The notes below the pieces were generated by a model. It did not search any database, had not been told where the DNA came from, and saw only the letters and a program-made list of their open reading frames with translations. Made by a program: the position numbers and the translations under genes. Positions 115 through 7,942 of a stretch of 7,942 bases of DNA are shown here, piece by piece; within the stretch, counting starts at the first letter, position 1; each line of letters opens with the position of its first letter. This DNA is from a virus (lineage: Duplodnaviria; Heunggongvirae; Uroviricota; Caudoviricetes): IMG/VR virus record IMGVR_UViG_2529292910_000006. One strand, written 5' to 3'.

Positions 115-489
115 ATGCTCATAGATTTGGTTTTACCTTACCCGCCGACGGTGAACACTTACTGGCGACGCCGTGGCAGCACATATTTTATCTCGGAGGA
201 GGGAAAGCGTTATCGCCGGGCTGTGGCGCTTATTGTTCGCCAGCAGCGGCTGAAATTAAGCCTGTCCGGAAGGCTGGCGATAAAGGTGATTGCAGAGCCA
301 CCGGATAAGCGTCGTCGCGACCTGGACAATATCCTGAAAGCACCGCTGGATGCGCTGACGCACGCGGGGTTGTTAATGGACGATGAGCAGTTTGATGAAA
401 TCAATATTGTACGTGGAAAGCCAGTATCTGGTGGACGTCTGGGGGTGAAGATTTACCCCATAATGCTTGAAGGGCAGGTCAAAAAATGA
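115..489 (+). CDS. rusA: Holliday junction resolvase RusA (crossover junction endodeoxyribonuclease)
   Basis: 124-aa ORF with AAGAGG ribosome-binding site at 103-108 and ATG at 115. The N-terminal LPYPPTVNTYWRRRG and the acidic catalytic block PDKRRRDLDNILKAPLDALTHAGLLMDDEQF match my recollection of E. coli RusA ([23 protein letters not shown]). Its TGA overlaps the next gene's ATG (ATGA at 486-489). Confidence 0.9.
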   Translation: MLIDLVLPYPPTVNTYWRRRGSTYFISEEGKRYRRAVALIVRQQRLKLSLSGRLAIKVIAEPPDKRRRDLDNILKAPLDALTHAGLLMDDEQFDEINIVRGKPVSGGRLGVKIYPIMLEGQVKK

Positions 490-1864: not shown

Positions 1865-2578
1865 ATGGCTGTTGTCTGTTCAGTTATCATGGTTTGCTCC
1901 CCAATTAATATTTTTCTTGAAAAGGATACGTTGTCACTTAAGCCAGGCTCAGTCGTTCTGGCCACCAAATGCATCAGGGAGCTTTTCCTTATGCATTATG
2001 ACAAAGTTAAAATTGTCGATATAAGCGAATCCGTCGTAAGTCAATATCTGGAAAGTCAGCATAAGCTGACGAGGACTCGTCTGACTGACATTCCGCTTTA
2101 CCTGTTGCTGGAACCCAACAATCCTGCGTTGGCTGCGGCTTTAATTACCAGCCAGGGATTTTCCGGAGAGGCCACGGATATGTTTCTTATGATGGCCTGC
2201 CTGTCTCTGTTTGAAACAGATGAACGGATGTCATTGTTTTTAAGTGGATGTTTATCCAGCATAAGTGTCAAAGTCAGGGCGATAATTCAGACAGATATAT
2301 CAGCAAGCTGGACGCTTGGTGCGATTGCTCTACAGTTGCATATGAGTGAGAGTTTGTTAAAGACAAAACTGAAAAATGAAGGGGGCATGTTCAGTCGCTT
2401 GTTGCTGGAAGAGCGGATGCGTGTTGCTGTAAATATGTTATGTTCCCGGTATGGATATGGACAGGCTGTAGCAGAAAAATGCGGTTATTCAAGCAGGTCC
2501 TACTTTATTTCTGTATTTCACCGCTATTATGGCTTCCCGCCAGACAGATATGTATCCAGGCAAGGGCTTGATTATTGA
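1865..2578 (+). CDS. AraC/XylS-family transcriptional regulator of the AppY/GadX-like group (prophage-borne, PatE/Psr-like)
   Basis: 237-aa ORF. The C-terminal AraC-type HTH (WTLGAIALQLHMSESLLKTKLKNEGGMFSRLLLEERMRVAVNMLCSRYGYGQAVAEKCGYSSRSYFISVFHRYYGFPPDRYVS) closely parallels the GadX C-terminus as I recall it (WTLARIASELLMSPSLLKKKLREEETSYSQLL…CGYHSVSYFIYVFRNYYGMTPTEY). The N-terminus MAVVCSVIMVCS…IRELF…KVKIVDISE resembles AppY (MDYVCSVVFICQ…IRREL…KLRIVDIDK). No recognisable Shine-Dalgarno sequence. Confidence 0.8.
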   Translation: MAVVCSVIMVCSPINIFLEKDTLSLKPGSVVLATKCIRELFLMHYDKVKIVDISESVVSQYLESQHKLTRTRLTDIPLYLLLEPNNPALAAALITSQGFSGEATDMFLMMACLSLFETDERMSLFLSGCLSSISVKVRAIIQTDISASWTLGAIALQLHMSESLLKTKLKNEGGMFSRLLLEERMRVAVNMLCSRYGYGQAVAEKCGYSSRSYFISVFHRYYGFPPDRYVSRQGLDY

Positions 2579-2606: not shown

Positions 2607-2682
2607 GGCCCTTTAGCTCAGTGGTGAGAGCGAGCGACTCATAATCGCCAGGTCGCTGGTTCAAATCCAGCAAGGGCCACCA
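2607..2682 (+). tRNA. ileZ: tRNA with CAU anticodon, most like tRNA-Ile2 (lysidine) of the ileX/ileZ type; tRNA-Met not excluded
   Basis: 76 nt with 7-bp acceptor stem GGCCCTT/AAGGGCC, D arm GCTC…GAGC, anticodon loop CTCATAA, T loop TTCAAAT and encoded CCA. Near-identical in layout to E. coli ileX as recalled. Confidence 0.8.
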
Positions 2683-2689
2683 TCACATA

Positions 2690-2766
2690 CCGCCATTAGC
2701 TCATCAGGACAGAGCGCCAGCCTTCGAAGCTGGTTGCGCGGGGTTCGGGTCCCCGATGGCGGTCCA
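2690..2766 (+). tRNA. argN: tRNA-Arg (anticodon UCG)
   Basis: 77 nt with perfect 7-bp acceptor stem CCGCCAT/ATGGCGG, D stem GCTC/GAGC, perfect anticodon stem CCAGC/GCTGG with loop CTTCGAA, T stem CGGGG/CCCCG and encoded CCA. Seven-nt spacer from the previous tRNA. Confidence 0.75.
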
Positions 2767-2779
2767 TTATCGGTATTCA

Positions 2780-2856
2780 GCGTTGTTAGCTCAGCCGGAC
2801 AGAGCAATTGCCTTCTAAGCAATCGGTCACTGGTCCGAATCCAGTACAACGCGCCA
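2780..2856 (+). tRNA. argO: tRNA-Arg (anticodon UCU)
   Basis: 77 nt with acceptor stem GCGTTGT/ACAACGC, D stem GCTC/GAGC, anticodon stem ATTGC/GCAAT with loop CTTCTAA, T loop TCCGAAT and encoded CCA. Confidence 0.85.
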
Positions 2857-3143
2857 CACCACACTTATCTGCCCTGACTCTCTTTTGCGGGCTTTTTATT
2901 ACAGGAAAGACACCGGACAGTGAAATGTTAAATGCCTCACAATTCAGGCAGTTGACTGTTGCCTGACATGCTGAGCGTTTGTTAAAAAAATCCTGCATGA
3001 TGAATCCCCCTGAGCGGCGGGGCATAATGACAGATGTTTGGTTGCGTATTGTATAGGCAAGTTGCGGATTCTGTCTGGTCATTGCAGAATTCACCGGGAG
3101 GCACCCGGCATCATGCTGTATACAGAGATTAGGCATATATCCA

Positions 3144-3168
3144 GGCTCCTCATCGCAGGAGCCTTTTT
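3144..3168 (+). terminator. Rho-independent terminator (+ strand)
   Basis: Stem GGCTCCT (3144-3150) / AGGAGCC (3157-3163) with loop CATCGC, followed by TTTTT. Confidence 0.55.
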
Positions 3169-3174
3169 ACATGC

Positions 3175-3199
3175 AAAAAAAGCCCGAGTGGGTTCGGGC
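3175..3199 (-). terminator. Rho-independent terminator (- strand), forming a back-to-back pair with the + strand terminator
   Basis: On the minus strand: GCCCGA, loop ACCCAC, TCGGGC, followed by T7 (seen as A7 at 3175-3181 then GCCCGAGTGGGTTCGGGC on the + strand). Confidence 0.45.
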
Positions 3200-3259
3200 A
3201 ACAGCATGAGATACTTGCATTGTCATTTTTATCGTGTGGATTTTAACCAGGGTTTATAA

Positions 3260-3290
3260 GGCTGCGCAACTGCGCGGCCTTTTTCGTTTT
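3260..3290 (+). terminator. Rho-independent terminator (+ strand) about 90 bp upstream of nanS-p
   Basis: Stem GGCTGCGC (3260-3267) / GCGCGGCC (3272-3279) with one G-U pair and loop AACT, followed by TTTTTCGTTTT. Confidence 0.5.
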
Positions 3291-3377
3291 GCGGGCTGCG
3301 GTTCTCCTCTTTTGATTCTCCGTATAGCCGGACTGTGGCCCGCACTGTTGAGGAAAATCCCGGAAAGGGGAGGAATA

Positions 3378-5312
3378 ATGGCATTTAAACACTATGACGT
3401 GGTCAGGGCGGCGTCGCCGTCAGACCTTGCTGAACGACTGACTCAAAAACTGAGGGAGGGGTGGCAGCCATTTGGCAGTCCTGTCGCCATCACGCCTTAT
3501 ACCCTGATGCAGGCCATTGCGGCGGAAGGTGATGTCACCACACCTGTGGTGGTGAGGCCGTCGGATGGAGAAGGCACAGTTATCAGCACCACCAGCGAAC
3601 CGGAATATTACTATGTTGTCGTCCTTGCCGGTCAGTCCAATGGTATGGCTTTTGGCGAAGGGCTGCCGTTACCTGAAACCTATGACCGCCCTGAGCCGCG
3701 CATTATGCAGCTGGCGCGCCGTAGTACGGTGACGCCGGGGGGAGCTGCATGTGCGTACAATGATGTTATTCCAGCTGACCACTGTCTGCATGACGTCATT
3801 GATATGAGTGGATTCAACCACCCACGGGCCGACCTGACAAAGGGGCAGTATGGTTGTGTGGGGCAGGGGCTGCATATTGCCAAAAAGCTTCTGCCGTTCA
3901 TTCCGGTAAATGCAGGTATTCTCCTGGTTCCGTGCTGTCGTGGTGGCTCAGCATTCACCTCCGGAGATGATGGCGCATTTACTGAGTCTACCGGTGCTTC
4001 CGCCAGCTCAGCCCGCTGGGGAGTGGGTAAACCGTTGTATCAGGATTTTCTCTTCCGTACAAAAGCGGCGCTGTCGAAGAACCCGAAAAACAGGCTTCTG
4101 GCCGTGGTATGGATGCAGGGGGAAAATGATCTTGCGGACGGCAGTCAGCAGCACAGCGGCCTGTTTACCGCTATGGTGCAGCAGTTCAGGGCTGATATGG
4201 CAGCATATTCTGCACAGTGCGTTGGCGGAAGTGCTGGCTCGGTGCCGTGGATTTGCGGTGACACCACGTATTACTGGAAGAATCTTAACGCCGCTAAATA
4301 TGAGGCGGTATATGGCGGTTACAAGGGCAGGGAAGCACAGAATATTTTCTTTGTTCCTTTTATGACGGACAGCAGTGGTGCAAACACACCCACCAACAAT
4401 CCGTCAGAAGACCCGGATATTCCGGCATCAGGATATTACGGTGCAGCCTCCCGGACGTCGGAAAACTGGACGTCAGCAGACCGTGCGAGCCATTTCAGCT
4501 CATGGGCACGCAGGGGGATTATTTCTGACCGTCTGGCCTCAGCGATTCTTCTCCATGCAGGACGATCGGCTGAACTGGTGGGGGGACAGGTTGTGACGCC
4601 GCCGGATGAGAAGCCGTCACCGGACATACCATCAACACCGTCAACGGACGGGAAATCAGTGACAACGCTGCTTTCTTACCGTGCAGCAGAGTCAGATGGT
4701 TTACTGACTCCGCAGGGATGGGGTGCTGAAGGAGGGAGTGCAGCGGTAGTTGATGATGCAGGTGCTGCGGGAGGTAAGGCGCTGAGGCTGACCAAACAGG
4801 CAGGAAGGTCTTCGTGGTTTATGCAGCATGATGCCGGTAATGGCGCAGACCTTCTGGAGAAAGGCGGGCTTATCAGCTGTCGTTTTAAAGTTGATGGTGT
4901 GCTGTCTGCTAACCGTTATGCACTGGCGCTGTACTGGCCGGTTTCTTCATTGCCTCAGGGTGTCACACTGGAAGGTAATGCCGGTAACAATCTGCTGGCG
5001 TCGTTTTACGTACAGAGCGATGCCACAGACCTCAACGTGATGTACCACAAGGGTAACGCTGACCAGAACACGAAGCTGGGGTCATTCGGCGCATTTGACA
5101 ACGAATGGCATACGCTGGGCTTCCGTTTTGCCGGTAATAACAGCATTCAGGTGACGCCGGTGATTGATGGTCAGGATGGTGCACCGTTCATGCTGTCGCA
5201 GTCTCCGGTAGGTTCTTTTGCGGCAGACAAATTACGTGTAACGGATATCACAAAAGCGGCGACGTATACGGTGCTGATTGAAAGTATAACAGTGGAAGTG
5301 AATAACGCGTAA
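3378..5312 (+). CDS. nanS-p: Prophage sialate O-acetylesterase NanS-p (N-terminal DUF1737-like region plus SGNH/SASA esterase domain), 644 aa
   Basis: Strong ribosome-binding site GGAGG at 3368-3372 with ATG at 3378; the ORF track's longer 3234 start is an in-frame upstream extension. GQSNG esterase motif in VVVLAGQSNGMAFGEG (about 3630-3644). Size and position (after the tRNA triplet, before the holin) match the esterase gene found downstream of stx in Stx phages. Confidence 0.85.
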   Translation: MAFKHYDVVRAASPSDLAERLTQKLREGWQPFGSPVAITPYTLMQAIAAEGDVTTPVVVRPSDGEGTVISTTSEPEYYYVVVLAGQSNGMAFGEGLPLPETYDRPEPRIMQLARRSTVTPGGAACAYNDVIPADHCLHDVIDMSGFNHPRADLTKGQYGCVGQGLHIAKKLLPFIPVNAGILLVPCCRGGSAFTSGDDGAFTESTGASASSARWGVGKPLYQDFLFRTKAALSKNPKNRLLAVVWMQGENDLADGSQQHSGLFTAMVQQFRADMAAYSAQCVGGSAGSVPWICGDTTYYWKNLNAAKYEAVYGGYKGREAQNIFFVPFMTDSSGANTPTNNPSEDPDIPASGYYGAASRTSENWTSADRASHFSSWARRGIISDRLASAILLHAGRSAELVGGQVVTPPDEKPSPDIPSTPSTDGKSVTTLLSYRAAESDGLLTPQGWGAEGGSAAVVDDAGAAGGKALRLTKQAGRSSWFMQHDAGNGADLLEKGGLISCRFKVDGVLSANRYALALYWPVSSLPQGVTLEGNAGNNLLASFYVQSDATDLNVMYHKGNADQNTKLGSFGAFDNEWHTLGFRFAGNNSIQVTPVIDGQDGAPFMLSQSPVGSFAADKLRVTDITKAATYTVLIESITVEVNNA

Positions 5313-5326
5313 GCAGGATAAAAAAA

Positions 5327-5368
5327 TGCCGCCGGGGCAGGGAAAACAAGGAGCCAGAACCGGCGGCA
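5327..5368. repeat. Perfect 9-bp inverted repeat (TGCCGCCGG / CCGGCGGCA) with 24-nt spacer, just downstream of nanS-p
   Basis: 5327-5335 and 5360-5368 are exact reverse complements. No T-run follows, so this is not a canonical intrinsic terminator. Confidence 0.5.
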
Positions 5369-5462
5369 GAGGTCGCTACATCCTTAGCAAAAATATGCTG
5401 AGCAAAAAATGCAGGAGTTTTTTACTGGCAGGCATTAACCATGTCAATAATGGAGATGAATA

Positions 5463-5645
5463 ATGACATTTTTACAGCTGATTATGTTGTATTTCTGTAC
5501 AGCAGTTTGTGTGCTGTATCTTCTTTCTGGTGGGTACAGAGTCGTGAGAGATTTCTGGCGCAGACAGATTGACAAAAGGGCCGCTGAGAAAATCAGCGCC
5601 AGTCAGTCAGCCGGAACAAAACCCGAAGAGTCTCTCATTCCGTAG
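5463..5645 (+). CDS. Small hypothetical membrane protein (60 aa)
   Basis: GGAG at 5452-5455, 7 nt before ATG 5463. N-terminal hydrophobic helix (FLQLIMLYFCTAVCVLYLLSGG) followed by a basic/polar tail. Confidence 0.5.
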   Translation: MTFLQLIMLYFCTAVCVLYLLSGGYRVVRDFWRRQIDKRAAEKISASQSAGTKPEESLIP

Positions 5646-5682
5646 CAACTTTCTTAACAACACCTTTCAACGAGAAAATACC

Positions 5683-5952
5683 ATGTCAGAAATAAAATCG
5701 CTGGTCACTGCTGAAGCAGTGAAGGAAGTCCTGCGCTCTGAAGAAGTCAGAAGCGCACTGAAACAGCAACTTCGTCAGAATCTTGAGGCGCGTCTTGATG
5801 CTGAAGTGGATGCCATTCTGGATGAACTGCTGGGGGTACCGGCTGCTCCCGGGCCTGAAGACGGTGCGGGTGACAGTGCTGTTTCAGATGGTGTCGTGTC
5901 TCAGCCTGATGGTGGCAGTGAGCCTCAGCCTGACGGCGAAATGATGATGTAA
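5683..5952 (+). CDS. Hypothetical acidic protein (89 aa)
   Basis: ATG at 5683 inside the longer track ORF 5569-5952. Helical N-terminal half (…LRSEEVRSALKQQLRQNLEARLDAEVDAILDELLG) and acidic Pro/Gly/Asp-rich C-terminus ending MMM. Weak ribosome-binding site. Confidence 0.45.
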   Translation: MSEIKSLVTAEAVKEVLRSEEVRSALKQQLRQNLEARLDAEVDAILDELLGVPAAPGPEDGAGDSAVSDGVVSQPDGGSEPQPDGEMMM

Positions 5953-6027
5953 CCATGCGCAGGGGCTGTCGGTGTGAGCTGATGCCCCTCTTGTTGTTGT
6001 GAGCTTCCGGATTGCGGGAGACGGGGT

Positions 6028-6243
6028 ATGTACCAGATGGAAAAAATCACAACAGGTGTGTCATACACCACGTCAGCGGTGGGAACGGGCTACTGGTTCC
6101 TGCAGTTGCTGGACAGGGTTTCCCCGTCTCAGTGGGCGGCAATAGGCGTGCTGGGGAGTCTGCTGTTTGGTCTGTTGACGTACCTGACGAACCTGTATTT
6201 CAAAATCAGAGAGGACCGTCGTAAGGCGGCACGGGGAGAGTAG
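6028..6243 (+). CDS. S: Class II holin (phage 21 S-type pinholin), 71 aa, with dual-start motif
   Basis: GGGAG at 6016-6020 then ATG 6028 and a second in-frame ATG at 6037 (MYQMEK…). Two transmembrane segments and the charged C-terminus [13 protein letters not shown]. The sequence closely matches my recollection of S21 (…[25 protein letters not shown]…[22 protein letters not shown]). Confidence 0.9.
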
Positions 6244-6246
6244 GTG

Positions 6247-6327
6247 ATGAACCATGAAGAAATGAATCAGCGCTTCAGTCGTCTGGAAAATGAAATTGCT
6301 GAACTGAATAAAAACTGTCGGCGCTGA
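6247..6327 (+). CDS. Very small ORF (26 aa) coupled to the downstream gene by a TGATG overlap; coding status uncertain
   Basis: ATG at 6247, 3 nt after the holin stop (MNHEEMNQRFSRLENEIAELNKNCRR*). Its TGA at 6325-6327 shares an A with ATG 6327 of the next ORF. Confidence 0.3.
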   Translation: MNHEEMNQRFSRLENEIAELNKNCRR

Positions 6328-6803
6328 TGCCTTCTGAAGATGAAAAAAAACGCCGCGATGAGCAGTTTGCTGCGTTTGACGATTATTGTCGGAAAGTGAT
6401 GAGCAGAAATCTCGCAGAGTGTTTCAGTATTCATAATGATAATTTCAGTGAGCTGGAATGGGAGTGTAACCGGCCATCCTTTGTTGTATCCGGTGATGCT
6501 GGGAAAATAACCATCTCAGAAAATGGGAAAGTAACACCTCCATCGCACCAGCACAGTGAGGAGCTCATTGAATTTGCCATTGATTACCTGAAGAACAATA
6601 AAAAGCAGGGGCTGATGAAGCGCGTTGGCCGTTGCATGGGATATCTTCAGGTAGCCGCTGAGATTGAAGCGCTGGCCAGTGGTGCTGATAAGGATGCAAT
6701 TGTGCGGGAGGCTCTTCTTCGTGATTTTAATACTCCACCCTTTAAAAAAGTGCCGGCTTACTGGCTTCATCCGGGGCTGACTTATCTTAAAGTGCGTATT
6801 TAG
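6327..6803 (+). CDS. Hypothetical protein (158 aa) located between holin and endolysin
   Basis: Uninterrupted ORF with non-repetitive composition (MPSEDEKKRRDEQFAAFDDYCRKVMSRNL…). An A8 tract at 6343-6350 sits in codons 6-8. No family recognised. Confidence 0.55.
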   Translation: MPSEDEKKRRDEQFAAFDDYCRKVMSRNLAECFSIHNDNFSELEWECNRPSFVVSGDAGKITISENGKVTPPSHQHSEELIEFAIDYLKNNKKQGLMKRVGRCMGYLQVAAEIEALASGADKDAIVREALLRDFNTPPFKKVPAYWLHPGLTYLKVRI

Positions 6804-6839: not shown

Positions 6840-6980
6840 ATGAACACCAAAATCAAATACGGCCTGTCGGCTGCCGTTCTGGCGCTGATTGCCGCTGGTG
6901 CGCCTGCGCCTGACATTCTCGACCAGTTTCTGGATGAAAAGGAAGGTAACCACACCACGGCATACCGTGATGGCGCGGGT
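6840..6980 (+). pseudogene. R: SAR endolysin (lysozyme R) 5' fragment, truncated after about 47 codons
   Basis: MNTKIKYGLSAAVLALIAAGAPAPDILDQFLDEKEGNHTTAYRDGAG matches the N-terminal signal-anchor-release region of Stx-phage/phage-21-type endolysins as recalled (…YGLSAAVLALIAAGA…DQFLDEKEGNHTTAYRDGAG). After about 6980 the frame becomes unrelated and stops at 7014-7016. Confidence 0.75.
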
Positions 6981-6985
6981 ACACC

Positions 6986-7942
6986 ATGCAGGTTGAGCCG
7001 GGGCGTTATCGTGTGACCCTGTGCGTGGAAGGCCGTCAGCCGGCATGCGCTGGCGAGATTGACGTCATGGCAGACGACGAGCCGGGCACACTGAATGCGT
7101 TTTTGCTGCGTGAGCAGGACAGCACTTATTACCCTGAGTCGCTGAAAAAACTGGAAGACGCGGCGGATGCGGCTGTCAGCAGGGCAGAGGAAGCGGCGAG
7201 GAAAGCGGAAACGGCGGTTGGGCCACAGGGACCGAAAGGCGACACCGGAGCAACGGGGCCGCAGGGACAGAAGGGGGACAAGGGGGATACAGGCCCACAG
7301 GGGCCAAAGGGGGATAAAGGAGACAAGGGCGATAAGGGGGATAAGGGAAAAGAGATTATTGCAGTACGAAATGCAGCCTGCAACGAATACGGCGGGATAA
7401 ACTGTGAGGTGCAGTTTGAAGATGCGGTCAATGAAAAAGGAGAGCAGGTATGGCTGCCGTATACCGCAACGGAAACGGATAATACAGAACACGGAAAAGC
7501 CTTGTGGTCGGGGCTGACAGCAGGAACATACGGAAGTGTGAGTGCCTTTGTTGCCACGGAAGCAATACTGGAAGCGGCAAAGGCGGCGAAAAGGGAAGAG
7601 ATTAATATCTGGCGTGATGTGCAGGAGAATATGGAATACGTGATGGAATTCAACGGAAGGAACTGGGATTACGGCAAGAAGACGTTGTCCAGGATAAGCA
7701 CGACACGACTGATGGCAGAGAACAACCGTCTTCCGGAAGGGTTTGCCTGGACGGACGGGGATAATAATGTGGTGCCGGTAACGGCGGCGGAGATAATTGC
7801 GCTGGCAGATGCGACAGAGCAGGCGATGTTTGCGAAAGGTGTGGAGATTAATACACGTCAGCTTCAGATGAAAGCAGAGGTTGAGGCGCTGACAGAGCTG
7901 AAGGCGATCCGCAGTTATGTTGTCGGATGGCCTGCAAGCTAG
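6986..7942 (+). CDS. stf: Side tail fibre protein, 5'-truncated remnant (318 aa from the first ATG) with collagen-like Gly-X-Y repeats
   Basis: EPGRYRVTLCVEGRQPACAGEIDVMADDEPGTLNAFL aligns with lambda Stf residues around 55-95 as recalled (EYGQYSVILQVDGFPPSHAGTITVYEDSQPGTLNDFL), so the homology starts mid-protein. Fourteen Gly-X-Y triplets follow. The frame is open back to 6971 and runs to TAG at 7940-7942, with no ribosome-binding site of its own. Confidence 0.7.
   Translation: MQVEPGRYRVTLCVEGRQPACAGEIDVMADDEPGTLNAFLLREQDSTYYPESLKKLEDAADAAVSRAEEAARKAETAVGPQGPKGDTGATGPQGQKGDKGDTGPQGPKGDKGDKGDKGDKGKEIIAVRNAACNEYGGINCEVQFEDAVNEKGEQVWLPYTATETDNTEHGKALWSGLTAGTYGSVSAFVATEAILEAAKAAKREEINIWRDVQENMEYVMEFNGRNWDYGKKTLSRISTTRLMAENNRLPEGFAWTDGDNNVVPVTAAEIIALADATEQAMFAKGVEINTRQLQMKAEVEALTELKAIRSYVVGWPAS
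7220..7354 (+). repeat. Collagen-like triplet repeat (Gly-X-Y, 14-15 units, including four GDK in tandem) inside the tail fibre gene
   Basis: GPQGPKGDTGATGPQGQKGDKGDTGPQGPKGDKGDKGDKGDKGKE, with a 9-bp periodicity of GGnGAnAAG-type units visible in the DNA. Confidence 0.9.

Follow-up and report, generated by a model that had tools for sequence, protein, structure and literature searches.

A mobile, terminator-bounded esterase block carries the DUF1378 and DUF826 genes found between nanS-p and the holin gene of a Stx-phage-like E. coli prophage

What two small genes are doing between the esterase gene nanS-p and the holin gene S, and whether they belong to the lysis machinery at all, is the question raised by the DNA analysed here (IMG/VR record IMGVR_UViG_2529292910_000006; 7,942 nucleotides in full, hereafter the window). 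The window corresponds to the late region of a lambdoid, Stx-phage-like E. coli prophage and contains no stx genes (Table 1). In Stx phages, the pair occupies the part of the late region that separates the toxin/esterase genes from the lysis genes. An influence of the pair on lysis timing or on SAR-endolysin release, if there is one, would extend to the release of toxin and to the yield of phage in EHEC. Downstream of S, the window holds a frameshifted accessory gene and a truncated endolysin gene R, whose N-terminus (MNTKIKYGLSAAVLALIAAGA) is of the SAR type. Because only the first 47 codons of R are present before it runs into a tail-fibre ORF, the window prophage is considered a deleted, lysis-defective remnant.

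Table 1. Features of the window, with coordinates counted from its first nucleotide.
Feature	Coordinates	Strand	Description
rusA	115-489		followed by a Q-type antiterminator region, an HTH gene and three tRNAs
sRNA STnc100	2966-3174
AgvB-like sRNA	3175-3234	-
nanS-p type sialate O-acetylesterase gene	3375..5312	+	DUF1737 + SASA + DUF6645 (Pfam)
Candidate leftward sRNA gene	5320..5447	-	body of about 93 nt; promoter-like boxes and terminator hairpin
Candidate sRNA, terminator hairpin	5368-5327	-	identical with the inverted repeat; U7 tail 5326-5320
Candidate sRNA, -10-like box	5424-5419	-	TAAAAA
Candidate sRNA, -35 box	5447-5442	-	TTGACA
DUF1378 family gene	5463..5645	+	60 aa, ATG start, GGAG 7 nt upstream
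DUF826 family gene	5683..5952	+	89 aa, ATG start
Intrinsic terminator (Rho-independent type)	5962..6000	+	between DUF826 and S
S21-type class II (pin)holin gene S	6028..6243	+	dual starts M1/M4; PF04971, 112 bits; phrog holin matches

Families, coding evidence and predicted topology

Both genes are already catalogued and very common. The first product matches the Pfam family DUF1378 (PF07125, a model of about 59 residues) over residues 1-59, on profile positions 1-59 of 59, with 124.2 bits (E = 2.3e-36), and the second matches DUF826 (PF05696) over residues 1-73, on profile positions 1-73 of 75, with 120.8 bits (E = 2.7e-35); the gathering threshold is 25 bits in both families. They also match phrog_494 and phrog_311, respectively, and their nearest database proteins are 97% and 98% identical to them. 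Both are full members of these families: the DUF1378 protein shares with relatives such as L0106 of 933W its place downstream of nanS-p, and the DUF826 protein matches those named "DUF826 domain-containing protein" in RefSeq both in its conserved N-domain and in its variable acidic tail. A previous reading of the locus, made from the sequence only, had assigned neither gene to a known family; profile searches do so without difficulty, and RefSeq routinely uses these names. The genes were nevertheless rightly called uncharacterised, the Pfam and PHROG families having no assigned function. ORFs of both families, of unknown function, have been placed between nanS-p and S (PMC10462455), and our literature searches found both DUFs named only in passing, in that report, and no experimental work on either family.

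Copies of the pair in 82-83 related loci are all intact and begin with ATG. Their length variants are all multiples of three (246, 270, 273, 285 or 291 nt for DUF826), the variable sites of both ORFs gather at codon position 3 (82 related loci), and the intergenic distances are fixed across the related loci (25/37/40 nt and 74-77 nt). The dN/dS ratio of DUF1378 is 0.17 overall and 0.075 at the juxtamembrane residues 26-47, and that of DUF826 is 0.17 in the N-domain versus 0.46 in the tail; the pairwise value for the neighbouring S is 0.06. As judged from these alignments, both ORFs are translated genes under purifying selection.

RefSeq often gives DUF826 as a protein of 127-134 aa, with an N-terminal extension of 38-58 codons that overlaps DUF1378. 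In this overlap, synonymous and non-synonymous substitutions number 202 and 112 in the DUF1378 frame versus 6 and 308 in the extension frame. The long form (TTG start at 5569) was rejected on these patterns, and we take the downstream ATG (Table 1) as the real start, because the substitutions fit the DUF1378 frame and not that of the extension. Divergent DUF826 homologues carry a strong AGGAG ahead of this same ATG.

The description of the first product as a single-pass membrane peptide with a good ribosome-binding site agrees with our results. DUF1378 has a single hydrophobic segment (residues 3-21, KD19 = 2.27) within a transmembrane domain (TMD) of about residues 3-25, which is preceded by 2 residues and followed by a basic cluster (R26/R29/R33/R34/K38/R39); its tail is basic (pI 10.3 for residues 26-60). 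From hydropathy and the positive-inside rule, it is predicted to be a single-pass inner-membrane protein with an N-out/C-in orientation. An invariant SGGY motif is located at the cytoplasmic end of the predicted TMD and is followed by a basic amphipathic juxtamembrane helix. The second product was likewise correctly seen, from its short start, as acidic and helical: its pI is 4.06 and its net charge -12.5, and the AlphaFold2 model contains short helices at residues 4-7 and 10-17 and a long one, confidently predicted, at 20-50, after which the tail (52-89) is disordered. The helical N-domain (1-51) is near-invariant, and the tail is variable, acidic and proline-rich, ending with MMM, TML or MML.

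Both families are small and almost confined to prophages of E. coli and Shigella. The pair is present in 1015 of the 5426 complete E. coli genomes (19%), with a median of 3 copies, and word-indexed protein searches gave 124 clusters for DUF1378 and 108 for DUF826. Phage records containing DUF1378, DUF826, nanS-p and an S21-type holin number 309, 307, 347 and 436, respectively, and those bearing the pair are nearly all Stx-converting. A DUF826 profile HMM compared with 1.84 billion representative proteins recovered 53 matches, all of them small phage or prophage proteins without function. When one genome per species was scanned, DUF826 had no match (185,579 species) and DUF1378 was found only in Cedecea neteri and, as a fragment, in Escherichia ruysiae. 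The PDB sequence search gave no match for either profile, and Foldseek of the DUF826 model against BFVD gave nothing at E below 1.

A mobile, terminator-bounded block that is not part of the lysis cassette

Related prophages also have the pair upstream of S (80 of the 80 IMG/VR loci and about 307 phage records). This position directly upstream of an S21-type pinholin gene, together with the resemblance of a membrane protein and its cytoplasmic partner to T4 RI/RIII, argues for a classical antiholin or holin-timing factor, the first role suggested in the previous reading, which would bind S21. The interval had, indeed, been described as feeding straight into the lysis cassette. However, a conserved intrinsic terminator, a hairpin with a T-tail, intervenes between the pair and S. 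Its stem is formed by 5962-5973 and 5978-5988, and its T-rich tail (5989-6000) is degenerate in the window copy (TCTTGTTGTTGT). All the 21 distinct variants fold into a hairpin; in an alignment of 13 variants, 96% of the cells are paired (26-69% in slid controls), with compensatory changes in 4 of the 10 pairs. Only a Q-modified polymerase should pass this terminator. In addition, the M1/M4 dual start already provides S with an antiholin of its own, and neither product has a match in the lysis-category PHROG and Pfam families or homology to known antiholins.

The context of the pair in other phages also speaks against a tie to the holin. Mu-like E. coli prophages hold a divergent copy between gin and com/mom, in the order gin recombinase, SASA/DUF6645 esterase, DUF1378, DUF826, terminator, 66-aa ORF, com and mom; the terminator following DUF826 is equivalent to that of the window, some 25 kb separate the pair from the lysis genes, and no holin is found nearby. 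Conversely, database counts gave about 130 S21-holin phage records and about 40 nanS-p records without the pair. In the Stx1 phage Stx1_14040 and the EPEC prophage PP2, for example, the esterase gene is followed by 447 bp without ORFs and then by the S21 holin gene. Since related phages possess the esterase and the S21 holin without the pair, we consider the pair dispensable; phage 21-type lysis is known to work without it. The terminator before S, the Mu-like context and the phages that have the holin without the pair thus move these genes away from the lysis cassette, and they probably do not form a classical antiholin setting the timing of S. A factor binding S21 is, in our estimation, quite improbable.

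In E. coli loci, the order is always esterase, DUF1378 and DUF826, and DUF1378 is immediately preceded by the esterase gene in every related locus whose upstream sequence extends far enough. We show here that the two genes make up the distal cistrons of a mobile, terminator-bounded block (SASA/nanS-p esterase, DUF1378, DUF826, terminator). In Stx-like lambdoid prophages, this block occupies the Q-dependent late region; it is also found, whole, between gin and com/mom of Mu-like E. coli prophages. In E. coli, the pair travels with the phage sialic-acid esterase gene and is not part of the lysis cassette.

More distant copies occupy other sites. In the Stenotrophomonas phage BUCT709, a complete lysis cassette (S21-like holin, SAR endolysin and Rz-Rz1) ends with a DUF1378 member (62 bits), whose start overlaps the Rz stop. 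The copy of Cedecea neteri is located after the tail-fibre genes of a Mu-like prophage, beside a dam methylase gene. Neither of these two copies is accompanied by DUF826 or by an esterase. Distant homologues of DUF826 alone lie between lysis and terminase genes, or beside a KilA-N gene, and also have no esterase. These insertion sites are classical for accessory genes, and all four sites of DUF1378 (in lambdoid and Mu-like E. coli prophages, BUCT709 and Cedecea) are classical for morons, too.

The linkage observed in E. coli would suit a pair that assists the esterase, which has no signal peptide, in its membrane localisation, in its release without full lysis or in the control of substrate uptake. 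A SASA/DUF6645 esterase gene directly precedes the pair in every E. coli context examined, lambdoid or Mu-like, the three genes share one terminator, and organism-level counts are consistent with pair records (307-309) being a subset of esterase records (347). However, the pair does not co-vary with the esterase, since near-identical pairs adjoin esterase C-domains that are 38-100% identical to that of the window. The esterase-bearing phages devoid of the pair and the copies of DUF1378 (BUCT709, Cedecea) and of distant DUF826 that have no esterase also count against such an accessory role, which we hold to be improbable.

The genes could also constitute a moron. With low expression of the block from the prophage, DUF1378, either by itself or together with DUF826, would act at the inner membrane to the advantage of the lysogen, possibly in superinfection exclusion by blocking DNA entry or in the modulation of a host membrane protein; HK97 gp15 and regulators of the SgrT/AcrZ type are small membrane proteins that act in this way. 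This reading accounts both for a portable, terminator-bounded block, found at non-homologous sites (between Q and S in lambdoid prophages, between gin and mom in Mu-like ones), and for a terminator guarding S, as expected if Q-independent transcription crosses the block in lysogens and meets a lethal gene. It is also consistent with the positions of DUF1378 after a tail fibre in Cedecea and after Rz in BUCT709, with the promoter-bearing tRNA and sRNA genes present upstream in the window, with the integrity of both ORFs although the window prophage is a lysis-defective remnant, and with the multiple copies per E. coli genome. On the other hand, a search for sigma-70 promoters before the pair found 1 weak site (5435-5464) versus 0.7 expected by chance, and PADLOC defence models gave no match at E <= 1 with the two proteins or the esterase. 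The coupling of DUF1378 to late lysis genes in BUCT709 and the strong dependence of the upstream esterase on induction (late and inducible, 10- to 250-fold with mitomycin C; PMC10462455) also speak against a moron, a role that we regard as possible though doubtful.

The inverted repeat and a candidate leftward sRNA

A 9-bp inverted repeat lies just after the esterase gene and had been suggested as an operator of the two genes. The repeat itself is exact (5327-5335 and 5360-5368, 100% complementary, 24-nt spacer), but it has the characteristics of a terminator hairpin on the minus strand (-26.5 kcal/mol, z = -3.0), with A7 ahead of it on the plus strand and consequently U7 after it on the minus strand. 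We rejected the operator interpretation because the two arms, GC-rich and separated by 24 nt, show compensatory variation and have a conserved A7/U7 tract beside them. In the related loci examined, an A-run and a GC hairpin directly follow the esterase stop, and the stem of the hairpin has at least three main versions, which differ by compensatory changes (e.g. CCGCCGG/CCGGCGG versus CCGCCAGC/GCTGGCGG).

Promoter-like boxes are found on the same strand. A perfect minus-strand TTGACA is located 15-26 nt upstream of the DUF1378 ATG in 79 of the 80 loci; a -10-like hexamer with 4 of 6 matches comes next, and the terminator lies about 80-95 nt further. The Rfam family Esr41 (RF02676) aligns over its full length, with scores (23.2 bits for 5318-5403 of the window, minus strand, and 30.9 bits in a Stx1 phage) that are far below its gathering score of 102 bits. 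PasC is a validated Hfq-dependent sRNA of EPEC E2348/69 (PMC8550237 Table S6; bioRxiv 10.64898/2026.05.13.724894). In that genome, it is encoded on the minus strand (1290909 to 1290832) and ends 2 nt past the stop of the esterase gene (1290830), and PasA lies between esterase and holin. The window terminator abuts the esterase stop in the same way, its U-tail ending at 5320 for a stop at 5312. PasA and PasC (EcOnc51/52), Esr41 and the window candidate have in common a minus-strand orientation between esterase and holin, a GC stem with a U7-8 tail and a length of about 80-95 nt; in sequence, the candidate is only weakly similar to PasC and Esr41. The inverted repeat is therefore most likely the terminator of a putative PasC-like leftward sRNA.

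An sRNA adjacent to, and divergent from, a gene for a small membrane peptide recalls type I toxin systems such as tisB/istR and zorO/orzO, in which case the sRNA would hold DUF1378 in check. The size of DUF1378, its N-terminal TMD and the near-constant proximity of the -35 box to its ATG are compatible with such a toxin. However, PasA and PasC-type sRNAs are found at this position in prophages devoid of DUF1378, and the candidate sRNA does not overlap the DUF1378 ribosome-binding site. Moreover, DUF1378 is located inside a long late operon with no tightly repressed promoter of its own, and strong purifying selection on its cytoplasmic tail and a dedicated partner protein are atypical of these toxins. 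A toxin-like function appears very improbable to us.

A tentative releasin-like role and comparison with known systems

Because one DUF1378 copy belongs to the lysis cassette of BUCT709 and the expression of the region is late and induction-dependent, we tentatively favour the view that the pair may be a non-essential, late-acting modulator of envelope events, releasin-like or anti-release, in phages with SAR endolysins. Almost equally likely is a moron role. The analogy is with gp25 of phage Mu (DUF2730), a 99-aa N-out/C-in protein with 4 periplasmic residues, a GG-aromatic-RR junction and an anionic helical cytoplasmic domain, which promotes SAR-endolysin release from the membrane (PMC9239132).

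In the mechanism that we propose, DUF1378 would insert N-out/C-in, exposing about 2 residues to the periplasm, with SGGY where the TMD reaches the cytoplasm, followed by the basic amphipathic helix. DUF826 would stay in the cytoplasm, its long, acidic and amphipathic helix continued by a disordered tail, and would probably dock on the basic juxtamembrane helix of DUF1378 and create a membrane-tethered anionic module. This module could be a split version of the Mu gp25 releasin, acting on the basic N-terminus of a membrane-tethered endolysin. The net charges of the two proteins are complementary (+2.8 for DUF1378 versus -12.5 for DUF826), and SAR-type endolysins occur in 3 of the 4 DUF1378-bearing backbones (the window type, BUCT709 and the Mu-like prophage, MPKLPAPLRKKLIALVLAGAG); the contig of the fourth, Cedecea, carries no lysis genes. 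AlphaFold2 applied to a natural in-frame fusion of the DUF1378 tail to DUF826 (P0192) gave helices only, with a pTM of 0.32. Several of the results above weigh against the proposal: the terminator between the pair and S, the distance to the lysis genes in Mu-like prophages, the S21-holin and nanS-p phages devoid of the pair, the presence of DUF1378 without DUF826 in BUCT709 and Cedecea, and insertion sites that are typical of morons.

According to profile comparisons, the pair is not a member of the releasin family: the Pfam search of both proteins gave no match to DUF2730 at E <= 1, and hhalign of two alignments (A8, A3) against gp25 gave a probability of 0.2%, with no similarity. The possibility that, in Mu-like prophages, the pair stands in for the releasin was also considered and rejected, as the Mu-like prophage bearing the pair keeps its own DUF2730 gene. 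The most specific version of the releasin-like proposal, a device of two polypeptides that would tune the exit of the SAR endolysin or of the pinholin TMD1 from the bilayer in Stx-type phages, is in our view unlikely. If true, it would represent a second, unrelated solution to the problem solved by Mu gp25, and it would influence when lysis occurs and when Shiga toxin is released. More generally, the esterase cargo block with its terminator, the PasC-like sRNA terminator and the DUF1378 gene of the BUCT709 lysis cassette re-frame the locus in a way that makes two long-standing DUFs testable.

Among known systems, S21-71 and T4 RI/RIII are, like the pair, small membrane and cytoplasmic proteins encoded next to a holin gene, but the pair has no homology to them. 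Obligate linkage to a holin and co-transcription with it, taken here as marks of an antiholin (S21-71, T4 RI/RIII and P1 LydB types), are not seen for the pair. With respect to releasins, the genetic position differs: a place within about 5 genes downstream of a SAR endolysin gene, taken as a mark of releasins, is seen only for the DUF1378 of BUCT709, whereas in all lambdoid loci, including the window, the pair precedes S and R, with a terminator between the pair and S. The architecture differs as well, since gp25 holds its anchor and its anionic part on one polypeptide and the pair splits them, the DUF1378 tail being basic. Nevertheless, gp25 and DUF1378 share an N-out/C-in orientation (predicted for DUF1378), few residues in the periplasm and a GG-aromatic-basic junction, DUF826 resembles the anionic helical domain that gp25 has in the cytoplasm, and the phages that host gp25 and those that host DUF1378 and DUF826 both have SAR endolysins.

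Reading frames and RNA signals around the DUF1378 and DUF826 genes

The RefSeq annotation often calls a DUF826 protein of 127-141 aa that overlaps DUF1378, because the +1 frame 5' of the DUF826 ATG (5569-5682 in the window) stays open, as it does over 45-66 codons in all related loci. The substitution patterns demonstrate that selection does not act on this N-terminal extension.

Between the nanS-p esterase gene and DUF1378, a candidate leftward gene (Table) resembles the prophage sRNAs PasC and Esr41. Its -35 box is perfect (TTGACA) and retained in 79 of the 80 related loci, the -10 box is weak, the body measures about 93 nt, and a hairpin (5368-5327, minus strand) with a U7 run after it abuts the esterase stop. 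The Rfam Esr41 model gave only 23 bits with this candidate, under threshold. Upstream, three tRNA genes, STnc100 and an AgvB-like anti-sRNA (2607-3234) lie immediately 5' of nanS-p.

The terminator between DUF826 and the holin gene S carries compensatory stem changes across 21 variants, and its T-tail is degenerate in the window copy (TCTTGTTGTTGT); a 3'-UTR-derived RNA could also end at this element. A perfect 8-bp inverted repeat (5995-6002/6047-6054) flanks both start codons of S. A possible reading is an sdi-like structure through which the ratio of antiholin to holin is set; the z-score for the fold (5995-6054) was not significant.

Features located in the window and in other phage loci
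Feature	Location	Strand	Remarks
tRNA genes (three)	2607-2679, 2690-2763, 2780-2853		
sRNA STnc100	2966-3174	plus	177 bits
AgvB-like anti-sRNA	3175-3234	minus	56.6 bits (gathering score 56)
Candidate PasC/Esr41-like sRNA gene	5320-5447	minus	-35, weak -10, terminator hairpin and U7
Intrinsic terminator, DUF826/S interval	5962-6000	plus	conserved, compensatory stem changes
S start codons	M1 at 6028, M4 at 6037		between arms of 8-bp repeat
Collagen-repeat tail-fibre ORF	6986-7942		adjoins SAR endolysin gene remnant
S21-like holin gene	BUCT709, 2221-2436		unannotated
Embedded Rz1 lipoprotein gene	BUCT709, 3197-3391		
66-aa ORF	L085, 5321-5521		conserved, no family; between cassette terminator and com/mom

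Decay of the lysis region

Only about 47 codons of the SAR endolysin gene (6840-7942 region) are intact, and homology to related prophages stops near 6981. The window prophage is a deletion remnant without a functional endolysin and without spanin, packaging, head and tail genes. Between S and the endolysin gene (6247-6803 region), ORF 6327-6803 matches phrog_1085 (296 aa) in its C-terminal half only, and the annotation of the closest E. coli genome marks the equivalent gene as frameshifted.

Cassettes in other phages

The 66-aa ORF of L085, a Mu-like E. coli prophage locus, has neither a Pfam match on record nor a PADLOC match. In the deposited record of Stenotrophomonas phage BUCT709, the holin and Rz1 genes complete a pinholin/SAR-endolysin cassette, which closely resembles the enterobacterial ones although the stated host is Stenotrophomonas.
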